From: a virus
Lineage: Duplodnaviria > Heunggongvirae > Uroviricota > Caudoviricetes
DNA length: 64,000 bases
IMG/VR virus record: IMGVR_UViG_3300037189_028117
Coordinates: 18,977-82,976 of that record
Strand: one strand, 5' to 3'
The notes under the pieces were generated by a model. The model was given only the letters and a program-made list of their open reading frames with translations. It searched no databases and was not told the DNA's origin. This document shows, in pieces, positions 2,337-55,473 of this stretch. The translations under genes and the position numbers were made by a program. Positions within the stretch are counted from its first letter, which is position 1, and every line of letters begins with the position of its first letter.

Positions 2337-2729
2337 ATGAAAAAACACAACTTAGATGTATGTTGGATTCAATATTCAGAAAAAGAATTAGAAGAGAATG
2401 CTAAATTATTCAGCCAAGCAGAGTGGAATTGGATTTCGAGCCGTCAGATTATATCTCAAAGATTTATTGAAAAATATTCAGATAAAATAGATTGGGGTTG
2501 GATTTCTGAACGTCAGAATTTATCTGAAGAATTTATGGAAAAACACCAAAATAAAATTAGTTGGTGTTATATTTCTCGATATCAAAAATTATCAGAAAAG
2601 TTTATAATAAAACATATAGATAAAATTGAGATTGATTGTTTAATTAATAATAGTTATATTTCTAGAAAATTAAAAAAACAAATAAAAAAAGAATATGAAC
2701 AATTAAAGTTATTGAAAGAAATTATATGA
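2337..2729 (+). CDS. 23-aa-repeat family protein (3 repeats)
   Basis: N-cap 'MKKHNLDV..YSEKELEEN', repeats 'ISxRQ.LSE.FIEKYSDKIDW', C-cap '..LKLLKEII'; ATGA overlap with next gene. Confidence 0.7.
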   Translation: MKKHNLDVCWIQYSEKELEENAKLFSQAEWNWISSRQIISQRFIEKYSDKIDWGWISERQNLSEEFMEKHQNKISWCYISRYQKLSEKFIIKHIDKIEIDCLINNSYISRKLKKQIKKEYEQLKLLKEII

Positions 2730-3046
2730 ATGACACTGATATTATTAATAAATATGTAAACTGGACAAGATTATCATGCGATGATTCTTTATCGGAAGAA
2801 TTTATCGAAAAATATCAAGATAAACTTAATTGGATGAACATATCTCAATATCAAAAATTATCAGAAAAATTTATTGAAAAACATTCAGATATAATTGATT
2901 GGGAACTTATTTCTGAATTTCAAGATTTATCCGAAGAATTTATAAAAAAACACTTAGATAAAATTGATATTTATTATTTAATGGACAATAGAAATATTCC
3001 AGAATATATTAAAAAAGAAATTGAAAATTTAAAAGAAATTATATGA
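2726..3046 (+). CDS. 23-aa-repeat family protein (3 repeats, divergent N-cap)
   Basis: 'LSEEFIEKYQDKLNW / LSEKFIEKHSDIIDW / LSEEFIKKHLDKIDI', ends 'NLKEII', ATGA junction. Confidence 0.7.
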   Translation: MNDTDIINKYVNWTRLSCDDSLSEEFIEKYQDKLNWMNISQYQKLSEKFIEKHSDIIDWELISEFQDLSEEFIKKHLDKIDIYYLMDNRNIPEYIKKEIENLKEII

Positions 3047-3352
3047 AAAAACATAATTTATTTTTAATATACAAGAAATACCCTGAAGAAGAATTAGAGG
3101 GAAATATTAACTTGTTTAATGAACAGGATTGGAATTATATTTCTTATTATCAAGATTTATCTGAAGATTTTATAGAGAAGCATTTAGATGAAGTTGATTG
3201 GGATAATATTTCTTTTAACCAAAAGTTATCAGAATCATTTATAAAAAAACATATTAATAAAATTAACTTTACTTTATTAATGAGAAATAAAAAAATTCTT
3301 TAAATTTGAAAGATAAAATTAAAAAAGAAATTGAATTATTGAAAGAAATTAT
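3043..3352 (+). pseudogene. 23-aa-repeat family member interrupted by a frameshift in an A7 run (ORF as called ends 3303; family C-cap '...KIKKEIELLKEII' continues in -1 frame to 3352)
   Basis: N-cap 'MKKHNLFLIYKKYPEEELEGNINLF', 2 repeats, stop after 'MRNKKIL'; downstream frame encodes 'NSLNLKDKIKKEIELLKEII*' with ATGA into next gene. Confidence 0.5.
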
Positions 3353-3790
3353 ATGAATCATAATTTAGATTTAGTAAACAAAACATATTCTGAAAAAACA
3401 TTAGAAAAATACATAGAATACTTTAATGATGAAGATTGGGAAGATATTTCTTATTGTCAAGATTTATCGGAATCATTTATTGAAAAATATTTTGATAAAG
3501 TTGATTGGTATTATATTTCTGGATATCAAATATTATCTGAAAAATTCATAGAAAAACATTTAGATAAACTTGATTGGGAATACATTTATAGCAACCAAAG
3601 GTTATCAGAATCTTTCATAGAAAGAAATTTGTATAAAGTTAATTGGATTGAAATATCTTGCTATCAAAAATTATCCGAAAAATTTGTTAAAAAACACTTA
3701 AATAAATTAGACGTTAAACAACTAATGTATAATGATAAAATTTCTAATAAAATAAAAAAAGAAATCTCAAAATTAATTGAAATCATATAG
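3353..3790 (+). CDS. 23-aa-repeat family protein (4 repeats)
   Basis: 'MNHNLDL..YSEKTLEKYIEYF', four 'xYQxLSExFIEKxxDKxxW' units, ends 'LIEII' (TAG stop). Confidence 0.7.
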   Translation: MNHNLDLVNKTYSEKTLEKYIEYFNDEDWEDISYCQDLSESFIEKYFDKVDWYYISGYQILSEKFIEKHLDKLDWEYIYSNQRLSESFIERNLYKVNWIEISCYQKLSEKFVKKHLNKLDVKQLMYNDKISNKIKKEISKLIEII

Positions 3791-3996
3791 CTCAAACGAT
3801 TATCTTTAAACCAAGAAAAAACTCAAAAAAAGATCATTTAGAAGTTGACTTCCTCGACCAACGTGCTAAAACCAGAGGGTCGAAACGGAGACGGAACAAC
3901 ACCAACCCCGTTCAAAAAAACTTACATCAAACTTAACAACTTAACACTTATTATAATTTATAAACAAAAACACACAACAATAATGGAGAATAATTA

Positions 3997-5310
3997 ATGC
4001 TAACTGACGTACATACAATTAATCAATCTAAGTTTAAGGAACTTCTCAAGGTTCATATTCAATGTGAAGAAAATCTTCTCGTTATCGGTCCTTCTGGCGG
4101 TGGAAAAACCGTAATTGCAAAATCTGTTGCTGACCAACTTGGTTGCGACTTGGTTTATGTAAACCTTGCGGTCATGGAAAGAACTGACTTTCAGGGTTTC
4201 CCAGTATTAGCTGATGATAAGCAATCAGTTGATTATGCAACGCCAACCTTCCTTTGCTTTACGGATACCGCTGCTTCTCAAGAAATTTCAAAGCTTGAAC
4301 GTAACCGTTCTGCCCTTGATGAAAGCAAGGATAAGAAAGCAATTGCAGCTCTTGATGCTAGAATCAAGACTCTTAAGAATCAGGAAGAGGAGCAAAAGCT
4401 TATTAACCTCTACAATTCTGGAATTAGAACTCCAGACTTGGAAGCAAAGGTTAAGGCTGCTCTTGAAGAAAGAAAGAAGTCTCGTCCAATTGTTTTCCTT
4501 TTCGACGAAGTTGATAAGGCTGCAACGGAAACAAACCAGACTCTTCTTGAACTTCTTCAGTTCAAGTCTATCAACGGTCGTCCACTCAATGTAAAGGCTT
4601 GTATTCTTACAGCTAACTTACCAGATGAGCATGCTCATTCTAACCAAATCAGCCATGCAATTTCAAAGCGTTGTTCAACTTATCGTTTAGATATTGAATT
4701 TGATATTTGGCGTGACTGGGCATTTAAGAACGATGTTCACACCCATATTATTCAGTTCTTATCTTCGCATGATAAGCTTCTGTATCAGCCAGCACCAGAT
4801 GGTGACGCAACGGCTTATGCTCTTCCTTCTCCTCGTACATGGGTATCTGCAAGTGATAAACTTAAGACGCTCGATGCAATGAATGTTCCTGATAAGGATA
4901 GTCTTATGACTGCAATTATTGCTGGTAACGTTGGAGAAACAGCAGCGATTAAGTTTGCAAGTTGGTATGAACATTACCGTAAGTGGGACAGCGCAATTGA
5001 AGATCTTGTAGAAAAGGGTAAGGCCCCAGATTTATCAAAGGCTGGAGCACAAGAAGTTCTTATCGTTGCAATTGCAGCTTGTAGCAAGGTTTACACTGAG
5101 CTTAAGCCAAACAATGACGCTCGTATCAAGAAGGTTGTAAAGAATGTTTACAAGTGGCTTGGTACTCAATCAAAGGATGTTCAACACGGAGCTATCCGAA
5201 TTTCATTCGGTGGAGATTTCCATACTGCATACCAATATGGTTTCTCTAAGATTGAGGAATCAATGAATATCTTCAATGATCTAAAGAAGGATTTCGAAAA
5301 GTACAAGTAA
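3997..5310 (+). CDS. MoxR-like AAA+ ATPase
   Basis: Walker A 'VIGPSGGGKTV', Walker B 'IVFLFDEVDKA'; strong RBS; gene pair with downstream VWA protein; locally higher GC than surroundings. Confidence 0.8.
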   Translation: MLTDVHTINQSKFKELLKVHIQCEENLLVIGPSGGGKTVIAKSVADQLGCDLVYVNLAVMERTDFQGFPVLADDKQSVDYATPTFLCFTDTAASQEISKLERNRSALDESKDKKAIAALDARIKTLKNQEEEQKLINLYNSGIRTPDLEAKVKAALEERKKSRPIVFLFDEVDKAATETNQTLLELLQFKSINGRPLNVKACILTANLPDEHAHSNQISHAISKRCSTYRLDIEFDIWRDWAFKNDVHTHIIQFLSSHDKLLYQPAPDGDATAYALPSPRTWVSASDKLKTLDAMNVPDKDSLMTAIIAGNVGETAAIKFASWYEHYRKWDSAIEDLVEKGKAPDLSKAGAQEVLIVAIAACSKVYTELKPNNDARIKKVVKNVYKWLGTQSKDVQHGAIRISFGGDFHTAYQYGFSKIEESMNIFNDLKKDFEKYK

Positions 5311-5326
5311 TTTTCGAAAAAACACA

Positions 5327-5349
5327 GGGGGTAGGTTTTTCCTACCCCC
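5327..5349 (+). other. GC-rich hairpin between MoxR and VWA genes (no U-tract)
   Basis: 'gggggtagg-ttttt-cctaccccc' 9-bp stem; flanked by two copies of palindrome TTTTCGAAAA. Confidence 0.45.
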
Positions 5350-5384
5350 ATTCCCCCAATTCTATATATATTTTAAGAGGTAAA

Positions 5385-6836
5385 ATGGCAAATCTTCTCA
5401 ATGACCCAAAGAACATCGCTTCAGATGATTTCGAAGAACTTAATGAAAAACTAAAAATTGCGCAAATGTTAATTTCGCGCTCACCTGATAAGAAAGGTTT
5501 TCCTTTCGTATATTGTTTTACTGCTCAGAAAGAGCATGTTTTGGAAGAAATTAAAATTCCAATTTTTACAGACGAAAATGGTAATGAAGAATATTTTTAT
5601 ACCGCAGCTACTGACGGTAAGAAATATTATTGGTCACCTCAATTAATTCGTGAAATGACCCCGAGAGCATTAGCTATCATTATGGCTCATGAAACTTACC
5701 ATGTTGTTTTGCAACATTGTATTCCTGCAAGAACCGGAGGAAAATTAAATTCAATCTGGAATATTGCAGTAGATTACGTTGTTAACGGAATGATTGAACA
5801 TGACGTTCGTCAAAGTTGGCCAGGAATGAATACAAATGAAAATTTCCGAGGAAAGGAACATCCTCTTTGGAAAGAAAAGCTTGGAAAGCCTCTTTATTTT
5901 GATGAACTTCTTGACTCCATCAAAGAGCAAACTAAGAAAAAGAAAGCTGAAAGAGCTGCTTCTAAAAATGGAAAAGCTCAGAAGCCACCTAAAGCTCAAA
6001 AGAAAAAGACTCCACCATCAAAAGATGATTTAAGGTTTTATGCCGATTATTCTTTGTATGGTAAATCTGCCGAAGAGATTTATGACCAAATCATCAAGGC
6101 TATGGAAGATCTTACCAATGAAGAAATGCAAGAAGCTCTTGAAGGCATGGGTATATCTATGGACGAACATATGGAACATGGTTTGTCAAAGGGTCAATTG
6201 TTTAAAGAAATCCTCGATGCTGCAAGAAATGCAAAAAAGCTTGCTGGAACCGTACCTGGATCAATTGAAGATCAAATTCTAAAGCTTCAAGAACCAAAAC
6301 TATCTGCTTTTGATATTATCAGAAATGTTATTAGCAAAAGAAGAGATGAAAAAGGTAGAATCAATGATTGGTCAAGATTTAAGAGAAGAGGATTATCTCT
6401 CGGTCTTTATCAACCAAAGAAAAAGGATGATTACATTCGTTGGTGCGCATTCCTAGATACGTCTGGGTCTATGAGTCAAGATGACCTTACATATGCCGTA
6501 AGTCAGCTAAAATGTTTGGATGGTCGTTCGGAAGGGATTGTTATTCCTAATGATGCCCAACCTTACTGGGATAAAGCAACTGACATTAAAAGAGTTGGTG
6601 ACTTACAAAGAACAAAGATTGTTGGTCGTGGCGGAACGGTATTCAAGCAAATCTTTGATGAATTTCCTAAGAAAATGAAAAAGCCAATTGATGTATTAAT
6701 TATTCTAACCGACGGTGGAATTTTTGATATGCCAGAATTAAAGAGACCAAATGTTAAGGTTGTTTGGATTTTAACAAACGATATGAAGGGATTTAACCCA
6801 CCTTTCGGTGAAGTTGCTCCCCTCAGAACATACTAA
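5385..6836 (+). CDS. VWA-domain protein with N-terminal zincin-like (HEXXH) domain, MoxR partner
   Basis: 'MAHETYHVVLQH' HEXXH; MIDAS 'FLDTSGSMS'; classic AAA(MoxR)+VWA operon; RBS 'aagagg'. Confidence 0.75.
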   Translation: MANLLNDPKNIASDDFEELNEKLKIAQMLISRSPDKKGFPFVYCFTAQKEHVLEEIKIPIFTDENGNEEYFYTAATDGKKYYWSPQLIREMTPRALAIIMAHETYHVVLQHCIPARTGGKLNSIWNIAVDYVVNGMIEHDVRQSWPGMNTNENFRGKEHPLWKEKLGKPLYFDELLDSIKEQTKKKKAERAASKNGKAQKPPKAQKKKTPPSKDDLRFYADYSLYGKSAEEIYDQIIKAMEDLTNEEMQEALEGMGISMDEHMEHGLSKGQLFKEILDAARNAKKLAGTVPGSIEDQILKLQEPKLSAFDIIRNVISKRRDEKGRINDWSRFKRRGLSLGLYQPKKKDDYIRWCAFLDTSGSMSQDDLTYAVSQLKCLDGRSEGIVIPNDAQPYWDKATDIKRVGDLQRTKIVGRGGTVFKQIFDEFPKKMKKPIDVLIILTDGGIFDMPELKRPNVKVVWILTNDMKGFNPPFGEVAPLRTY

Positions 6837-6851
6837 AAAGGAAAAATAAAT

Positions 6852-7082
6852 ATGTATGCGATTGATGTGTATTTAAACAGTGGTAAAAAGGTAGAAGCTC
6901 TTCTTTGGAGTTGGAAACCAAAAGAAGGATATTTTGAAGCTTTAGTTGAATCAACTGGAGCAATAAAGAAATATCAATTAAGAGAAGTTAGAGGAGGTAA
7001 ATTCTATTCGGATAGAATCCGTGAAGTATCTACCTCGGAAGATTTCCTTGAAAAAGCAAAAAGAGATGGTTTCGAAGGTTAA
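6852..7082 (+). CDS. hypothetical protein (76 aa)
   Basis: ORF with AT-biased codon use consistent with neighbours; no recognisable motif. Confidence 0.35.
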   Translation: MYAIDVYLNSGKKVEALLWSWKPKEGYFEALVESTGAIKKYQLREVRGGKFYSDRIREVSTSEDFLEKAKRDGFEG

Positions 7083-7305
7083 GCATTTCGAAGAGTTGTG
7101 GGAAGAAGCGGAATCTTTATCCTTTATGGATGAAGATTCCGTTTTCATTTCTATAATTGATGAAATCAATAATTTAAAAAAAAATCCTCAAAATATGGGT
7201 AAAGTTTTGCTATTATTGAGCTTTATATCAAAAAAATATAATATTGATGTTTATGATTTGTTGAAAAAAGAAATTGATCAAATTAAAATTGACAATTGGG
7301 AATGA
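7021..7305 (+). CDS. hypothetical protein (94 aa)
   Basis: ORF abutting repeat-family cluster; overlaps previous ORF, start uncertain. Confidence 0.3.
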   Translation: MKYLPRKISLKKQKEMVSKVKHFEELWEEAESLSFMDEDSVFISIIDEINNLKKNPQNMGKVLLLLSFISKKYNIDVYDLLKKEIDQIKIDNWE

Positions 7306-7692
7306 ATGCTTATGGGGCATAATTTGAAGTTAAAAACACAAAAATATTCTGAAAAAGAATTGGAAAATGATATTAATTTATTTGATGAACAGGATTGGGT
7401 TTATATTTTTAAATATCAAAATCTATCTGAATGGTTTATTGAAAAACACTATGATAAAATTGATTGGAGTGAGATTTCTTGGTCCAAAAAATTATCTGAA
7501 GAATTTATTGAAAAATATTCAGATAAAGTTGATTGGTATTATATTTCTGGATATCAAAAATTATCTGAAAAATTTATAAAAAAACATATAGATAAAATTG
7601 ATATTGATTGGTTAATGGAAAATAACAAAATTTCTGAAAAATTAAAAAATAAAATTAAAAAAGAAATTAATTTATTGAAAGAAATTATATGA
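7306..7692 (+). CDS. 23-aa-repeat family protein (3 repeats)
   Basis: 'KYSEKELENDINLFDEQDW', repeats, 'INLLKEII', ATGA junction. Confidence 0.7.
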   Translation: MLMGHNLKLKTQKYSEKELENDINLFDEQDWVYIFKYQNLSEWFIEKHYDKIDWSEISWSKKLSEEFIEKYSDKVDWYYISGYQKLSEKFIKKHIDKIDIDWLMENNKISEKLKNKIKKEINLLKEII

Positions 7693-8060
7693 AAAGACAT
7701 AATTTAGATTTAGGTAGAATAAAATATTCTGAAAAAGAATTAGAAAAAAATATTAAATTATTTGATTCAATTGATTGGTATAATATTTCTAAAAATCAAA
7801 AATTATCTGAAGAATTTATAGATAAATATTCAAAGATAGTTAGCTGGAGAGATATTTCTTGTTGTCAATATTTATCAGAAGAATTTATGGAAAAACACCA
7901 AAATAAAATTAGTTGGTGTTATATTTCTTGCTGCCAAAAATTATCTGAAAAATTTATAACAAAACATATAGATAAAATTGATTTTGAAGGGTTAATGGAA
8001 AATAAATATATTTCTCATAAAATTAAAGAAGAAATTAAAATATTGAAAGAAATTATATGA
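7689..8060 (+). CDS. 23-aa-repeat family protein (3 repeats)
   Basis: 'MKRHNLDL..KYSEKELEKNIKLF', Cys-containing repeat variants 'CCQYLSEEFMEKHQNKISW', 'KILKEII'. Confidence 0.7.
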   Translation: MKRHNLDLGRIKYSEKELEKNIKLFDSIDWYNISKNQKLSEEFIDKYSKIVSWRDISCCQYLSEEFMEKHQNKISWCYISCCQKLSEKFITKHIDKIDFEGLMENKYISHKIKEEIKILKEII

Positions 8061-8356
8061 AACATAATTTAGATTTAAGTAATACAAAATATTCAGAAGA
8101 AACGTTAGAAAAATATATTAATTCATTTTCTGGATGGGATTGGTATTATATTTCTTACTGTCAAGTTTTATCTGAAAAGTTTATAGAAAAACATTCGGAT
8201 AAATTAAATTGGTATGAAATTTCTTTTTATCAAAAATTATCCGAAGAATTTATGAAAAAACATATTGATAAAATTGATATTGGTTGTTTAACGGAGAACA
8301 AAAATATTTCTGAAAAAATCAAACAAGAAATTCAAACTTTGAAAGAAATAATTTAA
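8057..8356 (+). CDS. 23-aa-repeat family protein (2 repeats)
   Basis: 'MKHNLDLSNTKYSEETLEKYINSF', 'IQTLKEII'. Confidence 0.7.
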   Translation: MKHNLDLSNTKYSEETLEKYINSFSGWDWYYISYCQVLSEKFIEKHSDKLNWYEISFYQKLSEEFMKKHIDKIDIGCLTENKNISEKIKQEIQTLKEII

Positions 8357-8880
8357 GACATAGCTTGTTTTATTAGATACACAGAGGTTTCAAAATCATT
8401 AATTTGGCTCATTAACATATCGTCCAAACCTAATGACATTTCTCCAACAGCTTTAATTCGGTTGTAAACATCCTCCGCCATAATTATTAAATCTTGTTCA
8501 ACATCCAAAGAGTTTTTGAAAAAATTCTCAAAATGATACTTGCATAAGTTATTCATTTCAGGCAATTGATCTTCAATTACCAAAGAATCATTACCATATA
8601 AACCTATTATTTTTTCCGCAACGGAATCAATTTTATCACCAGCTTTTTCATAAATCTTTTGGAACATTTTATGATTCCCATAAAAATTTGGACCTTTACA
8701 TTTCCAATGAGAATGTTGATGAACAATATAAGAAACTCTAAGTAAAGCTAAATATTTATTTAATAAGTCTGGTCCAATAGAATCTTTTTTTTCTATTTTA
8801 GAAGAATCTGATGAATCATTTGCTAATTTAATTCTTCCAGATTTAATATCATCGTATATTTCTATTGGGTTTTTAACCAT
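8353..8880 (-). CDS. dps: Dps-like ferritin (DNA protection during starvation protein)
   Basis: 'LLRVSYIVHQHSHWKCKGPNFYGNHKMFQKIYEKAGDKIDSVAEKIIGLYG' matches Dps ferroxidase-site helix pair (HW.VKG..F...H..F...Y); SD 'gagga' upstream on minus strand; only minus-strand gene. Confidence 0.8.
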   Translation of the reverse strand: MVKNPIEIYDDIKSGRIKLANDSSDSSKIEKKDSIGPDLLNKYLALLRVSYIVHQHSHWKCKGPNFYGNHKMFQKIYEKAGDKIDSVAEKIIGLYGNDSLVIEDQLPEMNNLCKYHFENFFKNSLDVEQDLIIMAEDVYNRIKAVGEMSLGLDDMLMSQINDFETSVYLIKQAMS

Positions 8881-8930
8881 AAATCCTCAAATATAATGCA
8901 ACTTTATGCATTTCACTGAAAGGCAATAAT

Positions 8931-9650
8931 ATGAATATAATAAATGTTCCAAAAGGAACTCAAATACTCTTTGTTGGAGATATACACGAACACGATGATC
9001 AATTCTTTTCTTTAATGGAAAATTGGAAACCTTCTCTTGAAAGATGGGTCGTATCCCTGGGAGACGTGTGCGACAAGGGCAAGGGAGATGGAGCTTTCGA
9101 AAAGGTGTCTCATTTTTTGCAGGACGGCCACAGGCAGGGATGGGCAAGAGCAATCAAGGGAAACCACGAGCTGAAGCGTCTAAAAAATAGAAGACACAAT
9201 CTGAAAGATTATGACTTGTGGTGGAAAGAAAGACAAATTTCACTTTCATTTCAATTTTACAATTCAAATATTATAACTTGTGTTCATGCAGGAATTCCAC
9301 CCAAACTATCAAGCGATGATTTGAAAAAAAATCTTGATGTTTGTTATGTCAGAGACGTTGACGACCAAGGAATCATTCCATTAATTTGGAAACATGATGA
9401 AATAAATCCAAAGTTGGTCAAGGCTCGCGAAGGTGGGATTTCTTGGCATGAAATTTATGATGGACGTTTTGGTTATGTTATTTCCGGACATAATGCTCAA
9501 ACAGATGGCATTCCAAAGTTTTTTAATTATTCCTGCAATATAGATACAGGAGTATATGAAACTGGAATTTTAACTGGTCAAATTATTGATGAAAATGGAA
9601 AACTAGGAGAAACCTTACAAATTAAAGGTGAAGTTTTTAGAAGTAAATAA
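8931..9650 (+). CDS. calcineurin-like metallophosphoesterase (PPP family)
   Basis: 'LFVGDIHEHDD', 'SLGDVCDKG', 'GNHE' metallophosphatase motifs; contains a GC3-rich patch 9048-9182. Confidence 0.75.
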   Translation: MNIINVPKGTQILFVGDIHEHDDQFFSLMENWKPSLERWVVSLGDVCDKGKGDGAFEKVSHFLQDGHRQGWARAIKGNHELKRLKNRRHNLKDYDLWWKERQISLSFQFYNSNIITCVHAGIPPKLSSDDLKKNLDVCYVRDVDDQGIIPLIWKHDEINPKLVKAREGGISWHEIYDGRFGYVISGHNAQTDGIPKFFNYSCNIDTGVYETGILTGQIIDENGKLGETLQIKGEVFRSK

Positions 9651-9657
9651 GTTTTAA

Positions 9658-9770
9658 AAACTAAGTAAATATTATTTACTAAGTAAATATTACCTATAAT
9701 CTTGATTATAGGTAAATTTATTTACTAAGTAATATTTACTTAGTAAATAATATATATTATTTACTAACAA
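9658..9770. promoter_or_regulatory. array of 4-5 dyad-symmetric sites (ATTTAC-TAA-GTAAAT) plus 20-bp palindrome, candidate operator/iteron region
   Basis: direct copies at 9658-9674 and 9675-9692, perfect 13+3+13 palindrome 9720-9748, partial copy 9759-9769; hairpin 'cctataatcttgattatagg' 9693-9712. Confidence 0.6.
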
Positions 9771-9777
9771 AATATTA

Positions 9778-9804
9778 CGAAGTAATATTTTACTTCGTTT
9801 TTTG
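9778..9804 (+). terminator. intrinsic terminator
   Basis: 'cgaagtaa-tatt-ttacttcg' 8-bp stem + 'ttttttg'. Confidence 0.6.
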
Positions 9805-9807
9805 ATT

Positions 9808-9835
9808 TTGCAATTATTACAATATATGTTATAAT
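9808..9835 (+). promoter_or_regulatory. sigma70-like promoter with extended -10 (TTGCAA-16-TGtTATAAT), near-leaderless for ORF at 9843
   Basis: -35 9808-9813, -10 9830-9835 preceded by TG; ATG at 9843. Confidence 0.5.
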
Positions 9836-9842
9836 ATAATAA

Positions 9843-10199
9843 ATGGAAGATAAGTTAAATTTACCAGAATTAAATCCAAATTTATTCTCTTATTTAGAAG
9901 AAATAAAATTTAACAATCCAGTTAAATTAACAAATCAAGAAGAATTGCTTTTTAAATTAAAAGCTCACATTGATTTGCCTATGAATTTAATAGTCTTCAT
10001 TATAGAAGAATTTTTAAATGAAGCAAAATCGGCACTTATAATAGGAGATTCGATTGACATGAGGCCGATAGGTATGCTATACACGGACAAAGACTCTGAG
10101 ATTTCAAGGTTGGTCAAGTTAAAAAGACATAAAAATTTAAAACGTAGAATTATATATGGAAAAAAACATAAATATGAACATTTCAGAAGTTCCAAGTGA
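9843..10199 (+). CDS. hypothetical protein (118 aa)
   Basis: first ORF after promoter/operator region. Confidence 0.45.
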   Translation: MEDKLNLPELNPNLFSYLEEIKFNNPVKLTNQEELLFKLKAHIDLPMNLIVFIIEEFLNEAKSALIIGDSIDMRPIGMLYTDKDSEISRLVKLKRHKNLKRRIIYGKKHKYEHFRSSK

Positions 10200-10572
10200 A
10201 AGTTTAATTAATTATATTTCAAATTATCAAGTTACAAAAATAAATAAAGAATTATCTAAAAATTGTATGATTGAACTCTTAAGAAGAAGATCTGAAGGAG
10301 AAGATTTGGATTTTGAAAAATTAATTTCTGATAAAGTAAATTTATTAAAGTCTGTTGGTAAAGGTTATGTGGTAAAAATTGATCCTAGATTTGATTTAAA
10401 TAAATCTGTTGAAAAGATATATAATATATCTCCATGTATGATTTTTAATAGAACAGAAAATTTAATCCATGTTGGAATTCCAATTGATGAAAAAATTAAA
10501 CAAATATGTTCTTTAGAAGAATCAATTATGTTTGAAAGCGATAAAAACTACTTACATTTAAGTTTAGAGTAA
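10156..10572 (+). CDS. hypothetical protein (138 aa)
   Basis: ORF; start uncertain (overlap with previous). Confidence 0.4.
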   Translation: MEKNINMNISEVPSESLINYISNYQVTKINKELSKNCMIELLRRRSEGEDLDFEKLISDKVNLLKSVGKGYVVKIDPRFDLNKSVEKIYNISPCMIFNRTENLIHVGIPIDEKIKQICSLEESIMFESDKNYLHLSLE

Positions 10573-10575
10573 ATT

Positions 10576-11001
10576 ATGAATCATTTAGAATATATAATAT
10601 CAAATTACGATGAAGAAATAACTAGAATGGGTAATGGTGAAGGTTTTTCTAGTGATTATAATTTGGTATTTCAAGGTTTATCTATTGAAGATTTAATATA
10701 CCTGAAAGAAAAATTAAATCCTGATCCGTCTATTTGGTCTTGGTTTATACCATATGATAAATTGGAAAAAATATTTCCCAATTGTAAAAAATGTATTATA
10801 CATTATAAAAAATTGGGTTATAGACAAAAACAAACTTGGTCAATAGAAATTTATGATTATAAAAATTTAGTTACTTTCTATGATGATCGTGAAAATTCAG
10901 ATGTGATTGATTTACAATATGCGGATATTATAAAAATATTTAATGATAATGACATAGAAAAAGATATTAAAGAATATTTCCTTTTAAAGGACATTATATG
11001 A
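10576..11001 (+). CDS. hypothetical protein ending 'LLKDII', ATGA-coupled
   Basis: shares C-terminal motif and junction with repeat family but lacks repeats. Confidence 0.45.
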   Translation: MNHLEYIISNYDEEITRMGNGEGFSSDYNLVFQGLSIEDLIYLKEKLNPDPSIWSWFIPYDKLEKIFPNCKKCIIHYKKLGYRQKQTWSIEIYDYKNLVTFYDDRENSDVIDLQYADIIKIFNDNDIEKDIKEYFLLKDII

Positions 11002-11351
11002 AATATATTGTTGTTTCAATTTTTATACCCGAATCTGGAGATAAATCTATTTATATTGCAACAAAAATTAATAGTAAAGAATTAATTGAAGAACCAATAT
11101 TTGATTGGGAAAACCTTGAATTTATAAAACAAATCTTTAATATAAAATTGATAATTAAAAATAATAAAGTAGATATAAATGAATTTATTAAAATTCATAA
11201 TTTCATCTTTTTAGAAGAAGATTTGTGCAGAATCTGTAACAAAACAAGAATATTTATTCCTTTAAAAGATTCATTTTCTTCAATTGAAGATTTTGAATCA
11301 TATGTTAAAAATGAAATTGATAAATTTGAATTATTTAAGGAAATTATATGA
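10998..11351 (+). CDS. hypothetical protein ending 'LFKEII', ATGA-coupled
   Basis: as above. Confidence 0.45.
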   Translation: MKYIVVSIFIPESGDKSIYIATKINSKELIEEPIFDWENLEFIKQIFNIKLIIKNNKVDINEFIKIHNFIFLEEDLCRICNKTRIFIPLKDSFSSIEDFESYVKNEIDKFELFKEII

Positions 11352-11938
11352 ATAAAGATAAACTATTTTTAAAAACTAAAAGGTATCCACAAAAAGAATT
11401 AGAAAAATATATTAATCTTTTTAATTCAAAAGATTGGAATAACATTTCTAAATATCAATATTTGTCAGAAAAATTTATTGAAAAACATTCAGATAAAATT
11501 AATTGGAAATTAATTTCTGCTCATCAAACTTTATCCGAAAAATTTATAGAAAAACATTACAATAAAGTTGATTGGGTTTATATTTCTCGTTGTCAAAAAT
11601 TAACAGAATTTCTTATAGAAAAACATTCAAATAAAATATCTTGGGGTTTTATTTCTTATTATCAAACTTTATCAGAATCATTTATTGAAAAATATCAGGA
11701 TAAACTTCATTGGTATTGGATTTCTTGGGCCCAAAGTTTATCTGAAGATTTTATTGAAAAACATTCAGATAAAATCTATTGGGATTGTATATCTCGATAT
11801 CAAAACTTATCTAAAGAATTTATAAAAAAACACGTTAATAAAATTAATTTTTATTATTTAAAATATAATAAAAACATTTCGAAAGAATTAAGATTAAAAA
11901 TTAAAAAAGAAATTGAATTATTGAAAGAAATTATATGA
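11348..11938 (+). CDS. 23-aa-repeat family protein (6 repeats)
   Basis: six consecutive 'SxYQxLSExFIEKHSDKIxWxxI' units; 'IELLKEII'. Confidence 0.75.
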   Translation: MNKDKLFLKTKRYPQKELEKYINLFNSKDWNNISKYQYLSEKFIEKHSDKINWKLISAHQTLSEKFIEKHYNKVDWVYISRCQKLTEFLIEKHSNKISWGFISYYQTLSESFIEKYQDKLHWYWISWAQSLSEDFIEKHSDKIYWDCISRYQNLSKEFIKKHVNKINFYYLKYNKNISKELRLKIKKEIELLKEII

Positions 11939-12144
11939 AGTCAAAATTAGTATTTTTTATAATTGCACCAGAAATTTCAATAGAATCTGCAGCTTTAGCT
12001 TTTAAAGAGAAATATTCTGAGTTCTTTAAAACTCATAATTTTTTAAAATCATTAGAGCATAACTATTTTAGTTATAACGGTGATTCTTGCGAAGAAATGA
12101 TTGAAGAATATAAGAAATATTTGTTGTTACAGGAAATAATATGA
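11935..12144 (+). CDS. hypothetical small protein ending 'LLQEII'
   Basis: ATGA-coupled small ORF. Confidence 0.4.
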   Translation: MKSKLVFFIIAPEISIESAALAFKEKYSEFFKTHNFLKSLEHNYFSYNGDSCEEMIEEYKKYLLLQEII

Positions 12145-12329
12145 CTAACATTTTAAAAATATCAAAGTTTTTAATAAAAGAAAATATAAAATTTTTCACA
12201 ATAGGATATAAAGAAAATTATTTTGTTGTTTTCTATATATTCGGAAATAGAGATGAAAACTCAATTTTTGAGTTTGAAGATATTAAGTATAAATTTAGAA
12301 AGGTTAATTACCCACATTATGAAAATTGA
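12141..12329 (+). CDS. hypothetical small protein
   Basis: ATGA overlap (ATGAAAATTGA) with RNA ligase start. Confidence 0.35.
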   Translation: MTNILKISKFLIKENIKFFTIGYKENYFVVFYIFGNRDENSIFEFEDIKYKFRKVNYPHYEN

Positions 12330-13398
12330 TATATCAAAATACAACCTTGAAGATTTCAGAATATTAGAGACTAATATTGCTGGAGAAAAGTGTTATTTAA
12401 TTAATCCAAATCATATAAACACAAAATGGACAAAAGAAAATTTAATTTTCCGTTCATCTATGTGGAATTCGAATTGGGAATCAATATCTCTTTCGTTCAA
12501 AAAGTTTTTTAATTGGGAAGAACAAACAGAGATGATACCAAAGCCTAATTCATTAAAAGAAGCGAAGTGCATTGAAAAAATTGATGGTTCTACTCTAATT
12601 ATTTCAAAATACAAGGGTGAATTAATTATTCGCACAAGAGGAACTACTTCCGCTTATAATTTAGAAAATGGTAATGAAATTGATTTTCTAAAACAAAAAT
12701 ATCCAAATTGTTTTAATTTTACAAATGAAAATCAAACTTATATTTATGAATGGGTTTCTCCTGTAAATAAAATTGTAATAAATTATGGTAATGATCCTGA
12801 TATTTATTTAACTGCCGTTATCAATCATTCGGATTATAGCATGGTTAAACAATCTGAATTAGATAAAATTGCTTTAACTTTGGGTGTTAAAAGACCAAAG
12901 GTATTTTCTTTTAAATCAATTGATGACATGGTATACTTGATTGATAACTTAAAAGGTCAAGAGGGTATCTGTGTTTATTTTAAAAACGAACAAGAAATAA
13001 AAAAAGTAAAATCTGCTTGGTATCTAACTTTGCATAGGATGAAAACTGAACTTGGTTCCTTTGAAAGGGTTGTAGATTTATATTTTGTAATAAATAAGCC
13101 GGATTATAATACATACTACCAATATGTAGTTGATAATTTTGATTATGAGCTTGCAGAATCTTGTAAATCTCATATTTCAAGAATATGTGATGGAATGAAG
13201 GAAGTTAACAAAATAGTGAAAGCGATGAAAGAAAAAGCTGATGAAGTAAGAGGCTTGACAAGAAAGGAAGCTGCCGCTATAATTCTTTCTGATTACGGAG
13301 TTACAAACCGTTCTGGAATGGTATTTTCTTTATTAGATAATAAACCTTTACAGGATAAAGATTATAAAAGATTATTATTTCAAGTAACCAAAATGTAA
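12319..13398 (+). CDS. RNA ligase, T4 Rnl1-like
   Basis: motif I 'EKIDGSTLIISKYKGELIIRTRG' (T4 Rnl1 '[23 protein letters not shown]'); 'YEWVSPVNKIVINY', 'KVKSAWYLTLH' colinear with Rnl1; start taken at 'MKIDISKY'. Confidence 0.75.
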   Translation: MKIDISKYNLEDFRILETNIAGEKCYLINPNHINTKWTKENLIFRSSMWNSNWESISLSFKKFFNWEEQTEMIPKPNSLKEAKCIEKIDGSTLIISKYKGELIIRTRGTTSAYNLENGNEIDFLKQKYPNCFNFTNENQTYIYEWVSPVNKIVINYGNDPDIYLTAVINHSDYSMVKQSELDKIALTLGVKRPKVFSFKSIDDMVYLIDNLKGQEGICVYFKNEQEIKKVKSAWYLTLHRMKTELGSFERVVDLYFVINKPDYNTYYQYVVDNFDYELAESCKSHISRICDGMKEVNKIVKAMKEKADEVRGLTRKEAAAIILSDYGVTNRSGMVFSLLDNKPLQDKDYKRLLFQVTKM

Positions 13399-15486: not shown

Positions 15487-16155
15487 ATGCGTTTTAAACA
15501 AGAAGATTTTTTTAACAATTTGGATTCTTTTCTTGAAGAAGTAAAGGTTAAAGAGAGTAAGAAAAAGAAAAAAACCTACAAAGGTACAATTAATGGTTTT
15601 GTAGGTAATTACGATTTTCTTTCAAATTTATTTTGTAGACCACAAACATCAATAATTTATTTTAATACCGTAAATGAAAAAGGTCAAGAAATGTTGACTT
15701 CAGTTATGGAAACTGCACCAACTCTAGAGCATCTATTTCAGATGTCTAAAACAATCAATCGTGAACAACAATTAAAGATTAAAGAAGCTCATACACCACT
15801 TCAAGCAAGAAGGTTAGGTTCAAAAGTGGATTTAATTAGTAATTGGGATGAGAAAAGGGTTCCAGTAATGAAGTCATTATTGGAGGATAAATTTTCTCAA
15901 CACTTTGATTTGAGATTAAAGCTTCTTGTAACTAATGGTTTTAAACTTGTAAATGAATCTCCATTAAACGAACCATTTTGGGCAACAAAAAATGGAAATG
16001 GAGAAAATATGTTGGGAAAACTTTTAGAAGAAGTTAGGAGTAGAATAATTAGAGATAGTGGTTCTCCAAAAGAAATTTTGCAAGCTTATTTGTCAAGGGA
16101 TGGTCTTGGTTTTATTTGCGATTGGTTTGAGGAAAATAAAATGAAAATTGTATGA
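15487..16155 (+). CDS. NADAR (YbiA-like, DUF1768) domain protein
   Basis: 'GNYDFLSNLF', 'EHLFQ', 'ARRLGSK', 'LKLLVTNGFKLVNESPLNEPFWATKNGNGENMLGKLLEEVRSRI' match the NADAR signature (LSNF...EHYFQ...ARK.GR...L.TG...L.E.S..D..WG.G.G.N.LG..LM..R). Confidence 0.7.
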   Translation: MRFKQEDFFNNLDSFLEEVKVKESKKKKKTYKGTINGFVGNYDFLSNLFCRPQTSIIYFNTVNEKGQEMLTSVMETAPTLEHLFQMSKTINREQQLKIKEAHTPLQARRLGSKVDLISNWDEKRVPVMKSLLEDKFSQHFDLRLKLLVTNGFKLVNESPLNEPFWATKNGNGENMLGKLLEEVRSRIIRDSGSPKEILQAYLSRDGLGFICDWFEENKMKIV

Positions 16156-16598: not shown

Positions 16599-16893
16599 AA
16601 AGATACAATTTAAATATAATTAAATATAGTGAAAATTATTTACAACATAATTTTCATTCATTTGATTCAGTTGATTGGAGTTTAATATCTTCTTATCAGG
16701 TTTTATCGGAAGAATTTATTGAAAAAAAATTCACATAAAGTTAGTTGGAATGATATTTCTGCTAGTCAAAAATTGTCAGAAAAATTTATCAAAAAACATT
16801 TTAAATTACTTGATATAGATAGTTTGCTTTTAAATAAAAATATAAGTAAGAAAACAAAAGGGAAAATTCTATTATTAAAAGAAATAATATAAT
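16598..16893 (+). pseudogene. 23-aa-repeat family member split by frameshift in an A8 run (~16733)
   Basis: 'MKRYNLNIIKYSENYLQHNFHSFDSVDWSLISSYQVLSEEFIEKKFT*' then other frame 'KFTHKVSWNDISASQKLSEKFIKKHFKLLDIDSLLLNKNISKKTKGKILLLKEII*'. Confidence 0.55.
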
Positions 16894-17749: not shown

Positions 17750-18159
17750 AAAAATTTGATTTTTATAACAAAAAATATAAACAGAAATATATTGAAAAAA
17801 GATTATTATATCTTTCAAAAGAGGATTTCTACCCTCTTTTCTATTATCAAGGACTTAAACCAAGTTTTTTTATAGAAAATAAAGATTACTTATTATCTGT
17901 GGTAGATAAGAATTTTTTTTATAGTGGTTTGCTTAGATCTGGTGAATCCGAATTAATACCAGAAACTTTTCTAAATGAAAATTGGAAAGATATATTAGAA
18001 TATACACCTATAGCAAGTAGGTCTCTTATTATTCTTGATGAAGATTTTTTTATGAATCATATTCATGATTTTGATATGTACAATATATTAAAGTATAATT
18101 TTTCTATTTCAGAAAAAACAAAGAATGATATAAAAGATATTATTGAAATAATATGTTAA
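17746..18159 (+). CDS. degenerate repeat-family-like protein
   Basis: 'KKYKQKYIEKRLLYLSKEDFYPLFYYQGLKPSFFIENKDY', C-term 'ISEKTKNDIKDIIEII'. Confidence 0.45.
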   Translation: MKKFDFYNKKYKQKYIEKRLLYLSKEDFYPLFYYQGLKPSFFIENKDYLLSVVDKNFFYSGLLRSGESELIPETFLNENWKDILEYTPIASRSLIILDEDFFMNHIHDFDMYNILKYNFSISEKTKNDIKDIIEIIC

Positions 18160-18476
18160 ATAGAAATAAATCTAGATTTAGAAATAATATATCTAAAAAC
18201 ATAGTTAAAAAATCTGGTAGAGTTTTAACTAAACATAAGGTAGAAGAAGTTATTGCTTTGTTTTTAGAATTTATGTTATTAGATTTAATTGATTATAAAA
18301 TTGTATCTATAGAAAATTTTGGGTCTTTTTCTAGAGGTTTTAAGAAAATTAAGGACAAATATAGTATTGACTTTAAATTTCATCCATCGTATAACTTGAT
18401 GAAGAACTCTATAAAAAGAAGAGCTATAATGAGAAAACCAAAAAAGAAAGGTAAAATATATGGAAGAAGTAATTAA
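18153..18476 (+). CDS. HU/IHF-like DNA-binding protein (tentative)
   Basis: ~100 aa, 'VEEVIALFLEFMLLDLIDYKIVSIENFGSFS' resembles HU 'VDAVFDSITEALRKGDKVQLIGFGNFE' arm region, Lys/Arg-rich C-tail. Confidence 0.5.
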   Translation: MLNRNKSRFRNNISKNIVKKSGRVLTKHKVEEVIALFLEFMLLDLIDYKIVSIENFGSFSRGFKKIKDKYSIDFKFHPSYNLMKNSIKRRAIMRKPKKKGKIYGRSN

Positions 18477-18962: not shown

Positions 18963-19313
18963 ATGAAAATGAACAAAAAACATTTAGAAAAATTCAAGAT
19001 ACATTTTAATGAATGTATATCGAAAATTGATTCTGATATCAAAAAAGAGATTGAAATCGATATTTCTGGCGATGAAGTTGATGAAGCTTCAGGGGATTCT
19101 ATTGCAAAGGTAATGAAACAGCTTTCTGAAAGAAATCTTAGAAAAAAGAAATCTATCGAGAGCGCTCTTCTAAAAATAGAAGATGGTACATTTGGGGAAT
19201 GCGAAGAATGTGGATGCCAAATTGGAGAAAAACGTTTATTAGCAATACCAGATGCAAAACATTGCATTAATTGTGCAGAAGATTTAGAACATATCGCAAA
19301 GCAATTTGCTTAA
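18963..19313 (+). CDS. DksA/TraR-family C4 zinc-finger protein
   Basis: coiled-coil N-term then 'CEECGCQIGEKRLLAIPDAKHCINCAEDLE'. Confidence 0.75.
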   Translation: MKMNKKHLEKFKIHFNECISKIDSDIKKEIEIDISGDEVDEASGDSIAKVMKQLSERNLRKKKSIESALLKIEDGTFGECEECGCQIGEKRLLAIPDAKHCINCAEDLEHIAKQFA

Positions 19314-23165: not shown

Positions 23166-24581
23166 ATGGATATAGATAAAATAATTAAAGATAATATAGA
23201 TAAAATAGATGAGGACTTTATAAAGTCCAATTTAATAGATTTTTTTATAGAATCAGAAATTAAATATATAAGAAAAGAAGCCAGAAATTGCTATGGTGAT
23301 AATGATGTTGGATTACAATCATTTATAGAATCATTAAAAAATGAAATATTTACATCCTGTAAAAGTTTTATATTGACAAACGAATTTTGGAAAACAAGAA
23401 GCATAATACCTTTTATAAAGAAAGTTATTTCAAGACATTCACAGAATATTTCTAAAAGAGGAGTGGCGCATAAGGTGTATCTTATTTGCCCAGCTTGTAG
23501 ATTTTATGGGAAAAAAGGAGATGATTCATTTTTAAAATCTAAAAATGGAACTTGTTATTGTGAAAAATGCAAAGAGGAAATTTCAAAAATAGAAGATGAA
23601 ATTAAATTAAATAATAACTTTAAATTAAATATAAATAAAAAATTAAGATCTGTATTTGTTGAGCATTCAAGAAAAGGATATCAATGTCCAGATTGCAAAA
23701 GTTTTATTCCAGCTTCTTCAAAACATGAAGATAATTTAGTTTGTCCTTACCCAAATTGTTTCTTTGTTGGCAAAGAAAATGATTTAAAAATAATGAATCA
23801 TCCTTTGATTAGCTTGAAAGTCTCTAATATTTCTCTTGACCAAGATGTTAGCAAAGATGGTTTTAGAAAAATAACATTAGAAAATTTTATTTCTTCTCAA
23901 GAAACGGAAGGTTTTATTCTTGATGAAATAATAGATGATAAAATTAATTTATTAAATGAAATAATAGACGCACAAATATCTTTTATCAAAAGAACAGAGG
24001 ATAAATCAACAACATTAATTAAAATTATGATGTTTGATGCCTTTAAGAAAATATTGGAAAAAGATCCGCAAGATATGATTTCTTATTTATTTTTTGGAAA
24101 AAAACAAATAGGAAACCCAATTCAAGCAAGAATATTCCAAGAATTTTCAAGAAACATTGAATCCATGTTACCTTTTGAAATAACAAAAGCTGGTAAAAAG
24201 ATTCAAATAAATGATTTGTTAGATGAAAACATTTCTTTATTTGATGGTTTAAGCGAGTTTTCGGCAGAAGTTAAAGAGAATGGTATTATACCAAATAAAA
24301 CAAAAGAAATATATATTGGAGGTAATAATTTTAAAAATTACGGGCCTTGTTTTATTGGTTATTTAAAAGATGTAATAGATGAAGAAACTGGAAATTCTCT
24401 AATGAATTTAGTGACGGATTATAGTTTTTCTAAAATAAAATCAAAAATAGCATCTGGGAAAAAAGTAAAGGTAATTCATTATAGAATACCTTCCCATTAT
24501 GAAATGGGAACTCTTGTAACATTACAAAAAACAAGAAAAAAGATTACAGAAAACATAAACAAAAAAGAGAAAAATATATGA
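23166..24581 (+). CDS. hypothetical multi-zinc-ribbon protein (471 aa)
   Basis: 'CPACRFYG...CYCEKCKEE', 'CPDCKSF...CPYPNCFF'. Confidence 0.5.
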   Translation: MDIDKIIKDNIDKIDEDFIKSNLIDFFIESEIKYIRKEARNCYGDNDVGLQSFIESLKNEIFTSCKSFILTNEFWKTRSIIPFIKKVISRHSQNISKRGVAHKVYLICPACRFYGKKGDDSFLKSKNGTCYCEKCKEEISKIEDEIKLNNNFKLNINKKLRSVFVEHSRKGYQCPDCKSFIPASSKHEDNLVCPYPNCFFVGKENDLKIMNHPLISLKVSNISLDQDVSKDGFRKITLENFISSQETEGFILDEIIDDKINLLNEIIDAQISFIKRTEDKSTTLIKIMMFDAFKKILEKDPQDMISYLFFGKKQIGNPIQARIFQEFSRNIESMLPFEITKAGKKIQINDLLDENISLFDGLSEFSAEVKENGIIPNKTKEIYIGGNNFKNYGPCFIGYLKDVIDEETGNSLMNLVTDYSFSKIKSKIASGKKVKVIHYRIPSHYEMGTLVTLQKTRKKITENINKKEKNI

Positions 24582-55472: not shown

Positions 55473-55473
55473 A

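Follow-up and report, generated by a model that had tools for sequence, protein, structure and literature searches.

The 192 bases at positions 9651-9842 of the 64-kb stretch of DNA analysed here (from IMG/VR record IMGVR_UViG_3300037189_028117; the whole stretch, at its full length, is called the window) are the boundary of two transcription units on the same strand, a terminator-promoter cassette that carries a lineage-specific array of short dyads. The gap separates the open reading frame (ORF) of a phosphatase, 8931-9650, from ORF 9843-10199, which encodes a protein with the HU fold. The terminator-promoter boundary is the firm part of our interpretation, the activities of both elements being predicted from their sequences. 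The feature is real, but it is probably an ordinary control cassette.

In the mechanism that we favour, transcription of the phosphatase unit would cross a quasi-palindrome of ∼124 bp, in which five or six copies of a 15-bp dyad surround a central hairpin, and would halt at an intrinsic, probably bidirectional, terminator at 9777-9804. Four bases on, a near-consensus extended -10 promoter would restart transcription, and the mRNA, which encodes a protein of the HU family together with its conserved partner, would be leaderless. Most likely, the lattice of dyads would offer several sites to a phage protein that binds DNA as a dimer and with sequence specificity. A product of the downstream operon (the HU-like protein, the partner or both) is the most economical choice for this protein, and occupancy of the lattice would tune the tightness of the boundary through read-through, promoter firing and local DNA architecture. 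Formation of a hairpin or cruciform may be part of this mechanism or, alternatively, a by-product of the symmetric packing of the dyads.

The dyad array and its terminator and promoter

The elements of the locus, with positions in the window, are as follows.

8931-9650, plus strand: phosphatase ORF, calcineurin-like (Metallophos, NinI-like; PF00149, E = 1.5e-9; phrog_246)
9634-9648: degenerate dyad remnant, 4 mismatches
9642-9765: AT-rich quasi-palindrome, ∼124 bp, capable of forming a hairpin or cruciform, centre 9702/9703
9656-9670, plus strand: site S0, AAAAACTAAGTAAAT, 3 mismatches, right half and centre intact
9674-9688, plus strand: site S1, perfect ATTTACT-A-AGTAAAT, a 7-1-7 dyad inside the 25-nt unit ATATTATTTACTAAGTAAATATTAC
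9690-9715: central hairpin TTACCTATAATC-TT-GATTATAGGTAA, perfect 12-nt arms 9690-9701 and 9704-9715
9720-9734, plus strand: site S2, ATTTACTAAGTAATA, 2 mismatches, shares 1 bp with S3
9722-9802: 81-bp module S2-S3-S4-terminator, recurring 100% identical and inverted on the 31.8-kb contig L005
9734-9748, minus strand: site S3, perfect, 25-nt unit identical to that of S1
9759-9773, plus strand: site S4, ATTTACTAACAAAAT, 2 mismatches, flanks the same as those of S1 and S3
9777-9804, plus strand: intrinsic terminator ACGAAGTAA-TATT-TTACTTCGT followed by T6, also scoring on the minus strand
9808-9835, plus strand: sigma-70-type extended -10 promoter, TTGCAA at 9808-9813, 16-nt spacer, TG at 9827-9828, TATAAT at 9830-9835
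9843-10199, plus strand: HU/IHF-fold protein (family profile and PF00216), first gene of the downstream unit
10156-10572, plus strand: conserved partner gene, overlapping the end of ORF 9843

An earlier note, made from the letters of this DNA alone, had described the gap as non-coding, and this is borne out; the sole ORF of 20 or more amino acids in 9651-9842 is a 26-residue frame with a TTG start on the minus strand. With 14.7% GC, the gap ranks only 10th among the most AT-rich 190-bp stretches of the window. The dyad motif ATTTACT-W-AGTAAAT occurs in it as two perfect and three degenerate copies, the perfect 15-mer ATTTACTAAGTAAAT lying at 9674-9688 on the plus strand and at 9734-9748 on the minus strand. 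The four to five copies of the earlier note are thus present as five sites, only two of which are perfect, and the unit of repetition is really about 25 nt long and directional, S1 being the reverse complement of S3 over ATATTATTTACTAAGTAAATATTAC. When up to two mismatches are allowed the window contains nine strand-matches, compared with 2.05 expected, a number reached by none of 100 shuffled sequences; six of the nine fall within 9674-9773, and the 11-nt cores TTACTAAGTAA and TTACTTAGTAA are found nowhere else in the 64 kb. The motif is therefore specific to this locus; frequent occurrence genome-wide, which the earlier note had named as refuting its reading, is not seen.

The sites combine into larger symmetric structures. 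S2 and S3 form a palindrome that had been described as perfect over 29 bp and that consists of perfect 15-nt arms (9718-9732 and 9736-9750) around a 3-nt spacer, TAT (9718-9750 overall), while S3 and S4 form a 14-0-14 palindrome centred at 9753/9754, with an intervening spacer, AATATATATT, that is palindromic as well. Because palindrome centres are located both on the sites and between them, the region is a lattice of overlapping palindromes and not a simple row of operators.

Outside the window, exact scans of IMG/VR with a 20-mer and with a 22-mer of the terminator returned only single matches attributable to chance, in addition to contig L005. One metagenome scan for the motif likewise gave chance matches only, the window's own contig lying outside the collections scanned. 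The idea of a widespread factor that binds TTACTWAGTAA was dropped, as a control palindrome of matched composition was found in more contigs (12 vs 7). Scans for paired sites did find tandem arrays containing TTACT(A/T)AGTAA in the unrelated IMG/VR phages L007, L008, L010 and L013, for example as a 25-bp repeat present five times in L013 and as about 10 copies in L010, a contig of 51% GC; that this core is common to unrelated phages is probably coincidence.

The terminator predicted in the earlier note stands. It comprises a 9-bp stem (9777-9798) with three G:C pairs, a 4-nt loop and TTTTTT, the form of an intrinsic (Rho-independent) terminator, and because it is A-rich on its 5' side it looks like a terminator on the minus strand too. 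The stem, CGAAGTAA-TATT-TTACTTCG, is a GC-strengthened copy of the S2/S3 hairpin, CTAAGTAA-TAT-TTACTTAG, and carries a compensatory T:A to G:C change.

Equally, the sequence elements of a TTGCAA-16-TGtTATAAT promoter directed at the next ATG were confirmed at 9808-9835, the sequence of 9827-9845 being TGTTATAATATAATAAATG. The match extends to 10 of 12 consensus positions plus the TG, the consensus used being that of sigma-70, and no other TTG[AC][CA]A-spacer-TGnTATAAT combination occurs in the non-coding DNA of the window. As a class, consensus promoters are not enriched in this AT-rich sequence (157 found, 134 expected), so that we infer, and do not assert, activity for this one. The -10 hexamer ends 7 nt before the ATG, a Shine-Dalgarno sequence is absent and the predicted transcription start is at about 9842-9843. 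Since the N-terminus of the ORF 9843 protein aligns with those of its homologues the start codon is correct, and the mRNA would be leaderless. Initiation factor IF3 normally discriminates against leaderless mRNAs, and it is curious that this phage encodes an IF3 of its own.

All of the dyads are located 5' of the terminator. Between the -35 hexamer (9808) and the closest site centre upstream of it, 9766, there are 42 bp, and S4 ends 35 bp before the hexamer, with the terminator in between; in this phage the array thus belongs to the 3' untranslated region of the transcript from upstream. The suggestion of operators that overlap promoter elements cannot be maintained with this geometry. Nor does the gene content suit the immunity region that had been proposed along with it. 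Pfam scans, here and below, cover about 55 ORFs of the window (the ORFs scanned), and among these there is no recombinase, transposase, invertase, integrase, antirepressor, protelomerase, terminase, Rep or helix-turn-helix (HTH) regulator, and hence no HTH repressor; the phage is a large one, with nearly all of its genes on one strand and with DnaE, topoisomerase and SbcCD.

The HU-like gene and the same slot in relatives

Taken alone, the ORF 9843 protein falls below the Pfam threshold. An exhaustive HMMER search gave ten distant relatives, and the resulting family profile, A2, matches the HU structures 1riy and 1b8z in the PDB with E = 1.6e-6 and IHF-alpha with E = 1.2e-5; PF00216 in turn matches 10 of the 12 family members, with a best E value of 6.5e-9. 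The protein has an N-terminal extension of ∼30 residues and a beta-arm about 15 residues shorter than that of HU, seen as a 15-residue deletion in the alignment of the family to 1riy, so that the full-length DNA-wrapping arm is lacking. On the basis of these profiles ORF 9843 belongs to a previously unrecognised HU-fold family with a short arm. A structure model from the single sequence is unusable, with a predicted local distance difference test (pLDDT) score of 43. The protein is recorded as well on a contig of 171,650 bp.

The partner protein encoded by ORF 10156 is fused to the HU-like protein in P0009, and its model includes a confident three-helix N-terminal domain (pLDDT 80-94). A second, more canonical HU-like gene is present in the window at 18153-18476 (PF00216, E = 6.8e-5); the distant relatives L078 and L079 likewise have two HU-family genes.

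The gene order Dps-like (minus strand), phosphatase, spacer, HU-like, partner, RNA ligase is kept in L001 (a 458-kb IMG/VR contig), L064 (a 90-kb Logan contig) and L066-L070, and the phosphatase gene occupies the equivalent position in L001, L064, L067 and L075. A collection assembled on the basis of the RNA ligase returned 50 loci, and the neighbourhood is shared by the 458-kb contig only. The ligase itself is common to many otherwise unrelated IMG/VR phages, with 43-58% identity; together with the general lack of a shared neighbourhood among the loci that it collects, this points to horizontal spread of the gene.

Spacers in the relatives are 120-210 bp long and all are strongly structured, with z values from -4.4 to -8. 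In five related lineages the slot holds a short perfect palindrome in multiple copies, each lineage having a palindrome of its own.

L064 and L066: palindromes TATATAGATCTATATA and TAGATCATGATCTA
L067: nine GATC sites within 93 bp; one palindrome whose stem measures 21 bp
L069: repeated units of AAGATCTTAAGTT; TAAAGAGT present four times
L001: two TACGTA, ATACTTAAGTAT and TATACGTATA

A conserved slot whose motif turns over between lineages is the pattern expected of co-evolving pairs of proteins and sites. In L064 and L066 the 84-bp array differs by a single TA indel and by no substitutions, compared with a divergence of about 3-6% in the flanking genes, which is a weak sign of constraint. The L064 palindromes lie 3' of a GC-rich terminator-like hairpin, that is, in the promoter zone and not in the 3' untranslated region (UTR). 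In the distant relatives L075-L079 the HU-like gene overlaps or abuts the gene upstream, to which it is translationally coupled, and both spacer and array are absent. The presence of the cassette is thus tied to a separate transcription start for the HU-like gene, and the gene pair as such can do without it.

Palindromes containing GATC pack the spacers of three relatives (L067, 2827-2919; L064, 3931-3975, with the sites at 16-bp spacing; L069, 120-260), and are missing from the spacers of the window and of L001. Such densities recall, by analogy, Dam-regulated sites, oriC or P1 pac. The motif GGCAGATTTTTG, considered as a phage-specific promoter motif, was rejected as it is found at this locus only, in L064 and L067 only, and not genome-wide.

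Competing explanations for the array

That the array is a protein-binding platform is the leading reading, and we hold it tentatively. It is favoured by the perfect and odd 7-1-7 dyad, whose geometry is fixed in S1 and S3 and recognisable in S0, S2 and S4 although the spacing between units varies; by the confinement of the motif to the gap, together with the presence of different palindromes in the same slot of the relatives; and by the association of the array with an independent promoter, directly downstream of which a DNA-binding fold is encoded. Zero-spacer palindromes are poor hairpins and typical binding sites of protein dimers.

A number of observations weigh against a platform. The sites are 42-180 bp upstream, behind the terminator and off the -35 and -10 hexamers, which excludes simple occlusion of the promoter, and their centres are spaced by 18, 46, 14 and 25 bp, values that are not whole helical turns. 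That 25 nt are identical in S1 and S3, among them flanks that are asymmetric, looks like a recent inverted duplication and not like selection on 15 bp. HU and IHF do not normally read 15-bp dyads, the arm of the ORF 9843 protein is shortened, and ORF 10156 has no recognisable DNA-binding fold, there being no match to it by Foldseek, by PDB profile search or in Pfam. Moreover, the spacers between the sites are palindromic and the stretch outfolds its shuffles, so that a structural role explains the data about as well.

Such a role, for RNA or cruciform, comes close behind. In a structure-only form, which we consider possible though on balance improbable, the dyads are merely the building blocks of a transcript-end module, a hairpin of 39-51 bp in the 3' UTR, placed before the terminator, that would stabilise the upstream mRNA or serve as a target at which RNase III processes or retro-regulates it, as at the T7 R sites and lambda sib; with the terminator it would insulate the two units. 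Its position between stop codon and terminator means that the array is transcribed. The core of the stem joins 9660-9700 to 9705-9744 by 39 pairs, with three bulges of 1 nt and, on the sense strand, two G.U pairs, and twelve outer pairs are added by 9654-9656/9748-9750 and 9642-9650/9757-9765, the outer left arm overlapping the last codons of the phosphatase gene. At the apex is the central hairpin, which is unrelated in sequence to the S sites; it had been noted earlier as a 20-bp hairpin and, while present, is longer than that, with its 12-nt arms. The inverted arms of 31 nt are 94% complementary.

Folded as RNA, 9642-9765 reaches -55.7 kcal/mol, compared with -21.6 for shuffled sequences (z = -10.5; z = -10.0 as DNA), and it ranks first in a sliding 130-nt scan of the window, with a GC-corrected z of -6.8 vs -4.9 for the next best segment. 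The antisense RNA reaches only -47.5 kcal/mol. This difference of 8 kcal/mol in favour of the sense strand, which arises because both mismatches of the core stem are G.U pairs on that strand, tells against a platform and for a function in the transcript. Also in favour of such a function are the compensatory change in the terminator stem, the strong structure of the related spacers and the first hairpin of L064 and L066, in which the stem is retained and the loop altered at three positions. On the other hand, an RNA hairpin requires neither palindromes that are perfect to the centre nor those without a spacer seen in the relatives, all of which fold weakly, and a single selected hairpin would not require the several alternative pairing registers that exist. 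In L064, as described above, the palindromes are in the promoter zone, and the second genomic context places the array beyond the terminator as seen from the tail-fibre operon. Two further observations concern structure in this sequence. The second most structured 130-nt segment contains a hairpin with an 18-bp stem, GAAGCGGAATCTTTATCC...GGATGAAGATTCCGTTTT, at 7105-7145, inside ORF 7021-7305. The central hairpin loosely resembles a Fur box, and a ferritin/Dps-like gene lies 800 bp away.

The second genomic context raises the question of whether array and terminator form a duplicated recombination or rearrangement cassette, resembling the promoter-early stem-loop (PeSL) elements of T4-type phages or miniature inverted-repeat transposable elements (MITEs), that is present in two or more inverted places, is a site of homologous or site-specific exchange and possibly inverts or shuffles a large segment, the regulatory parts travelling along. 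We regard this as doubtful. Contig L005 was found in the IMG/VR scan with the 20-mer; its last 81 bp match 9722-9802 and it diverges right after the T-run of the terminator. The copy lies 30 nt after a 97-residue ORF that closes a baseplate/tail-fibre gene block, and the contig also carries a baseplate-wedge homologue and ORFs of 2204 and 982 amino acids. The 97-residue protein ends in ...LLKEII, a signature common to more than 20 ORFs of the window, and is found as well on a Logan contig of run ERR2848576, from which the window's own unitigs are also recovered, and on a 31,763-bp ENA scaffold.

The IMG, ENA and Logan assemblies all fork at 9802/9803, with shared-segment overlaps of 81, 55 and 30 nt, the last two of which are k and k-1 of common assemblers, so that the fork in the graph is a true one. 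To the right of the terminator the sequence continues either with the promoter of the HU-like gene or with the reverse complement of the tail-fibre block. The fork is one of two things, a second inverted copy of array and terminator or a rearranged subpopulation, and it is compatible with either alike. Independent metagenomic contigs of the phage group repeatedly start or end inside the spacer (L065, 1-84; L070, 1-24; L095, 1; the ends of L005, L080, L081 and L002/L003), and the first 30 bp of L095 are a perfect palindrome, GTTAGTAAATAATATATATTATTTACTAAC, in which the first base alone departs from the sequence of the window. Such breaks in the relatives L065, L070 and L095, and a spacer that comes and goes among relatives, fit a cassette of this type, and PeSL cassettes have been documented as recombination joints (PMC2839356, PMC4122927). 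Against it, there is a single copy of array and terminator in the 64 kb; one other IMG/VR contig, L005, contains the 20-mer or the terminator 22-mer, its copy being partial, and IMG/VR holds no third context. The promoter, furthermore, lies outside the shared 81 bp, and the ORFs scanned include no recombinase, transposase or invertase.

Quite doubtful, too, is that the array has no dedicated function and is a neutral by-product of template-switch or slippage duplication in an AT-rich spacer that owes its function to terminator and promoter only. A recent inverted duplication is indeed what the identical S1 and S3 units and the complementary 31-nt arms look like, the motifs of the slot are replaced wholesale from relative to relative, and the spacer can be dispensed with. 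Five lineages, however, independently retain multi-copy palindromes in the slot, and the module is 100% identical in its two contexts; long palindromes are normally unstable, and the phage encodes an SbcCD-like nuclease.

Related to the rearrangement cassette is the idea, which we think improbable, that the module exists as two inverted copies in one genome, the first opening the HU-like early operon and the second closing the tail-fibre operon, and constitutes a cruciform site for programmed breakage, inversion or priming of replication. Such events could include cutting by SbcCD or a resolvase that seeds recombination-dependent replication, or inversion of tens of kilobases, and the truncated-arm HU-like protein would then be a structure-specific factor. 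A cruciform site would explain why the assemblies fork exactly at the terminator and why contigs break here repeatedly.

A replication origin, with initiator dyads symmetric about an extrudable or unwindable centre and the HU-like protein as an architectural helper, is distinctly unlikely. Three sites on each side of the central hairpin do give a symmetric layout in a gap of low GC content, GATC sites are as dense in the L067 spacer as in an oriC-like sequence, there is an HU-like gene next to the gap, and the primase zinc ribbon, DnaE, topoisomerase and SbcCD are encoded downstream on the same strand. The iterons of the earlier note nevertheless find little support, the dyads being in mixed orientation and not phased direct repeats, and the gap not being exceptional in AT content. 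The cumulative GC skew, which had been suggested as a check, climbs steadily through the site with no inflection, and no initiator or Rep is seen nearby, or by Pfam or PHROGs among the ORFs scanned, several neighbouring ORFs being unannotated. Distant relatives, finally, keep the neighbouring genes and lack the spacer.

P1 pac has clustered TGATC hexamers and needs IHF or HU. A genome-end element, whether a hairpin-telomere resolution site of the telRL type or a pac-type packaging site, is very improbable in spite of the long palindrome, the several independent contigs that end inside it and the likeness of the L067 spacer to P1 pac, as the centre is imperfect (TT apex, bulged arms), the flanks are not inverted copies, the ORFs scanned include neither protelomerase nor terminase, and the places where contigs end are consistent with overlaps of 30 and 55 nt in a de Bruijn graph and not with one shared physical end.

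Genomic setting and comparison with known systems

The window covers the early and DNA-metabolism region of an uncultivated phage that is AT-rich and very large, a giant with a genome of at least about 200 kb. Its base composition is 26% GC and the plus strand carries almost all ORFs; no tRNA is present, and there is no Rfam match above threshold either in the region or in the whole 64 kb. Searches of 50,697 GenBank phages gave no match to 8900-11400 (megablast) or to ORF 9843 (tblastn), so that there is no cultured relative from which to take annotation; DnaE has at most 33% identity to GenBank phages. Genes recognised by Pfam in the window are:

DNA and RNA handling: DNA ligase, RNA ligase, Thg1, RlaP, NADAR, topoisomerase IA
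DNA and RNA handling, continued: DnaG zinc ribbon, SbcCD-like nuclease, PD-(D/E)XK nuclease, DnaE
translation and protein handling: IF3, peptide deformylase, trigger factor, ClpP
other: NUDIX, MoxR/VWA pair, Dps/ferritin-like protein, FtsK-like ATPase

Genes resembling those of RNA repair (Thg1-like, T4 Rnl1-type RNA ligase, NADAR, histidine phosphatase and RlaP) are scattered over 1493-2332, 12223-13398, 15487-16155, 24578-25378 and 28419-29312, and four more, for IF3, for a peptide deformylase that has a SEC-C motif, for trigger factor and for a zinc-finger protein of the DksA/TraR type, are at 44871-45413, 45410-45922, 55453-56670 and 18963-19313. A GC-rich island at 3791-6000 (38.6% vs the 26% background) encodes a MoxR-type AAA ATPase and a DUF2201/VWA pair; it is preceded by a C/A-rich non-coding leader (3791-3996), and the ATPase gene is followed by a hairpin rich in GC (5327-5349), which on the minus strand scores as a terminator.

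More than 20 paralogous small ORFs are made of ∼23-residue repeats (W..IS..Q.LSE.FIEKH.DK) and all terminate in ...LLKEII, with a stop codon that overlaps the next ATG (AAAGAAATTATATGAAA). These occur at 2337-3046, 7306-8356, 11348-11938, 27255-28156, 33002-34057 and 61266-63100, with fragments at 3047-3356, 16599-16892 and 33383-33815. The same C-terminal junction closes the unrelated ORFs 10998-11351, 26462-26728 and 62496-62789 and the 97-residue ORF of L005 (12674-12967), which suggests that ...LLKEII with its stop-ATG overlap is a sequence conserved at the junctions between genes, where it could serve as a joint for recombination.

Almost nothing is known of how uncultivated giant phages regulate and punctuate their one-directional gene arrays, and the locus is a concrete cis-element in one of them. 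Were the lattice to bind the HU-like or partner proteins, it would be a compact site-protein pair that changes specificity between lineages, and if the second copy is a real rearrangement we would have cassette-mediated genome plasticity, or a structural recombination site, outside the T4 group; if all of this is ordinary, it is one more intergenic control region. In any case the spacer flags a place where metagenomic assemblies of such phages systematically break. What merits further attention is the fork placed precisely at the terminator, together with the HU family and its short arm.

Among known systems the closest likenesses are to the PeSL cassettes of T4-type phages, intergenic combinations of a sigma-70-like promoter and a stem-loop terminator that number about 50 per genome and cluster in hyperplastic regions (Arbiol et al. 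2010, PMC2839356; Comeau et al. 2014, PMC4122927). Like these, the locus is a small intergenic composite in a large phage of lytic type, with an AT-rich stretch, a stem-loop terminator and a strong predicted promoter before the next gene, and part of it recurs elsewhere, at what may be a junction of otherwise unrelated sequences. Unlike these, it has one copy in 64 kb plus one partial copy, the shared part is array and terminator without the promoter, and PeSLs have neither a lattice of 15-bp dyads nor a 124-bp quasi-palindrome.

Some other AT-rich intergenic elements can be set beside it. Elements of the Correia and MITE types can be active as terminators or promoters and can be bound by IHF or HU (PMC3184786). 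The locus shares with them, and with the RNase III sites of T7 and lambda sib, a length of about 100-150 bp, long inverted arms and a long transcript hairpin; in contrast to MITE and Correia elements it has no dispersed copies in the window or in IMG/VR, and the flanking GTTTT is too simple for a target-site duplication. The telRL site is a perfect palindrome, unlike the ..ATC-TT-GAT.. centre with bulged arms seen here, and iterons are direct repeats of ∼17-22 bp in one orientation and in helical phase, which are lacking. The palindromic viral origins of herpes simplex virus 1 (HSV-1; oriL and oriS) and the core origin of SV40 resemble the locus in being AT-rich imperfect palindromes with inverted short repeats around a central element; the locus differs in lacking an initiator gene or skew signal, in lying between genes on the same strand and in being missing from distant relatives.

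The OR and OL regions of lambda, 434 and P22 are multi-operator control regions, and the lambda cI mRNA transcribed from PRM is leaderless, as is predicted for the mRNA of ORF 9843. In common with these regions the locus has several dyad sites of ∼15 bp with fixed internal geometry, lineage-specific sequence and conserved position next to a promoter. It departs from them in that the sites are off the -35 and -10 hexamers with a terminator between, that the copies are identical over 25 nt and not graded in affinity, and that there is no divergent promoter pair and no lysogeny gene; Pfam finds no HTH in 8353-12329, and the flanking phosphatase and HU-like ORFs are both on the plus strand. By analogy, the locus would work most like a PeSL-type cassette or an operator cluster, while lacking defining features of each, and it is an intergenic boundary and control cassette of a phage lineage without cultured members.

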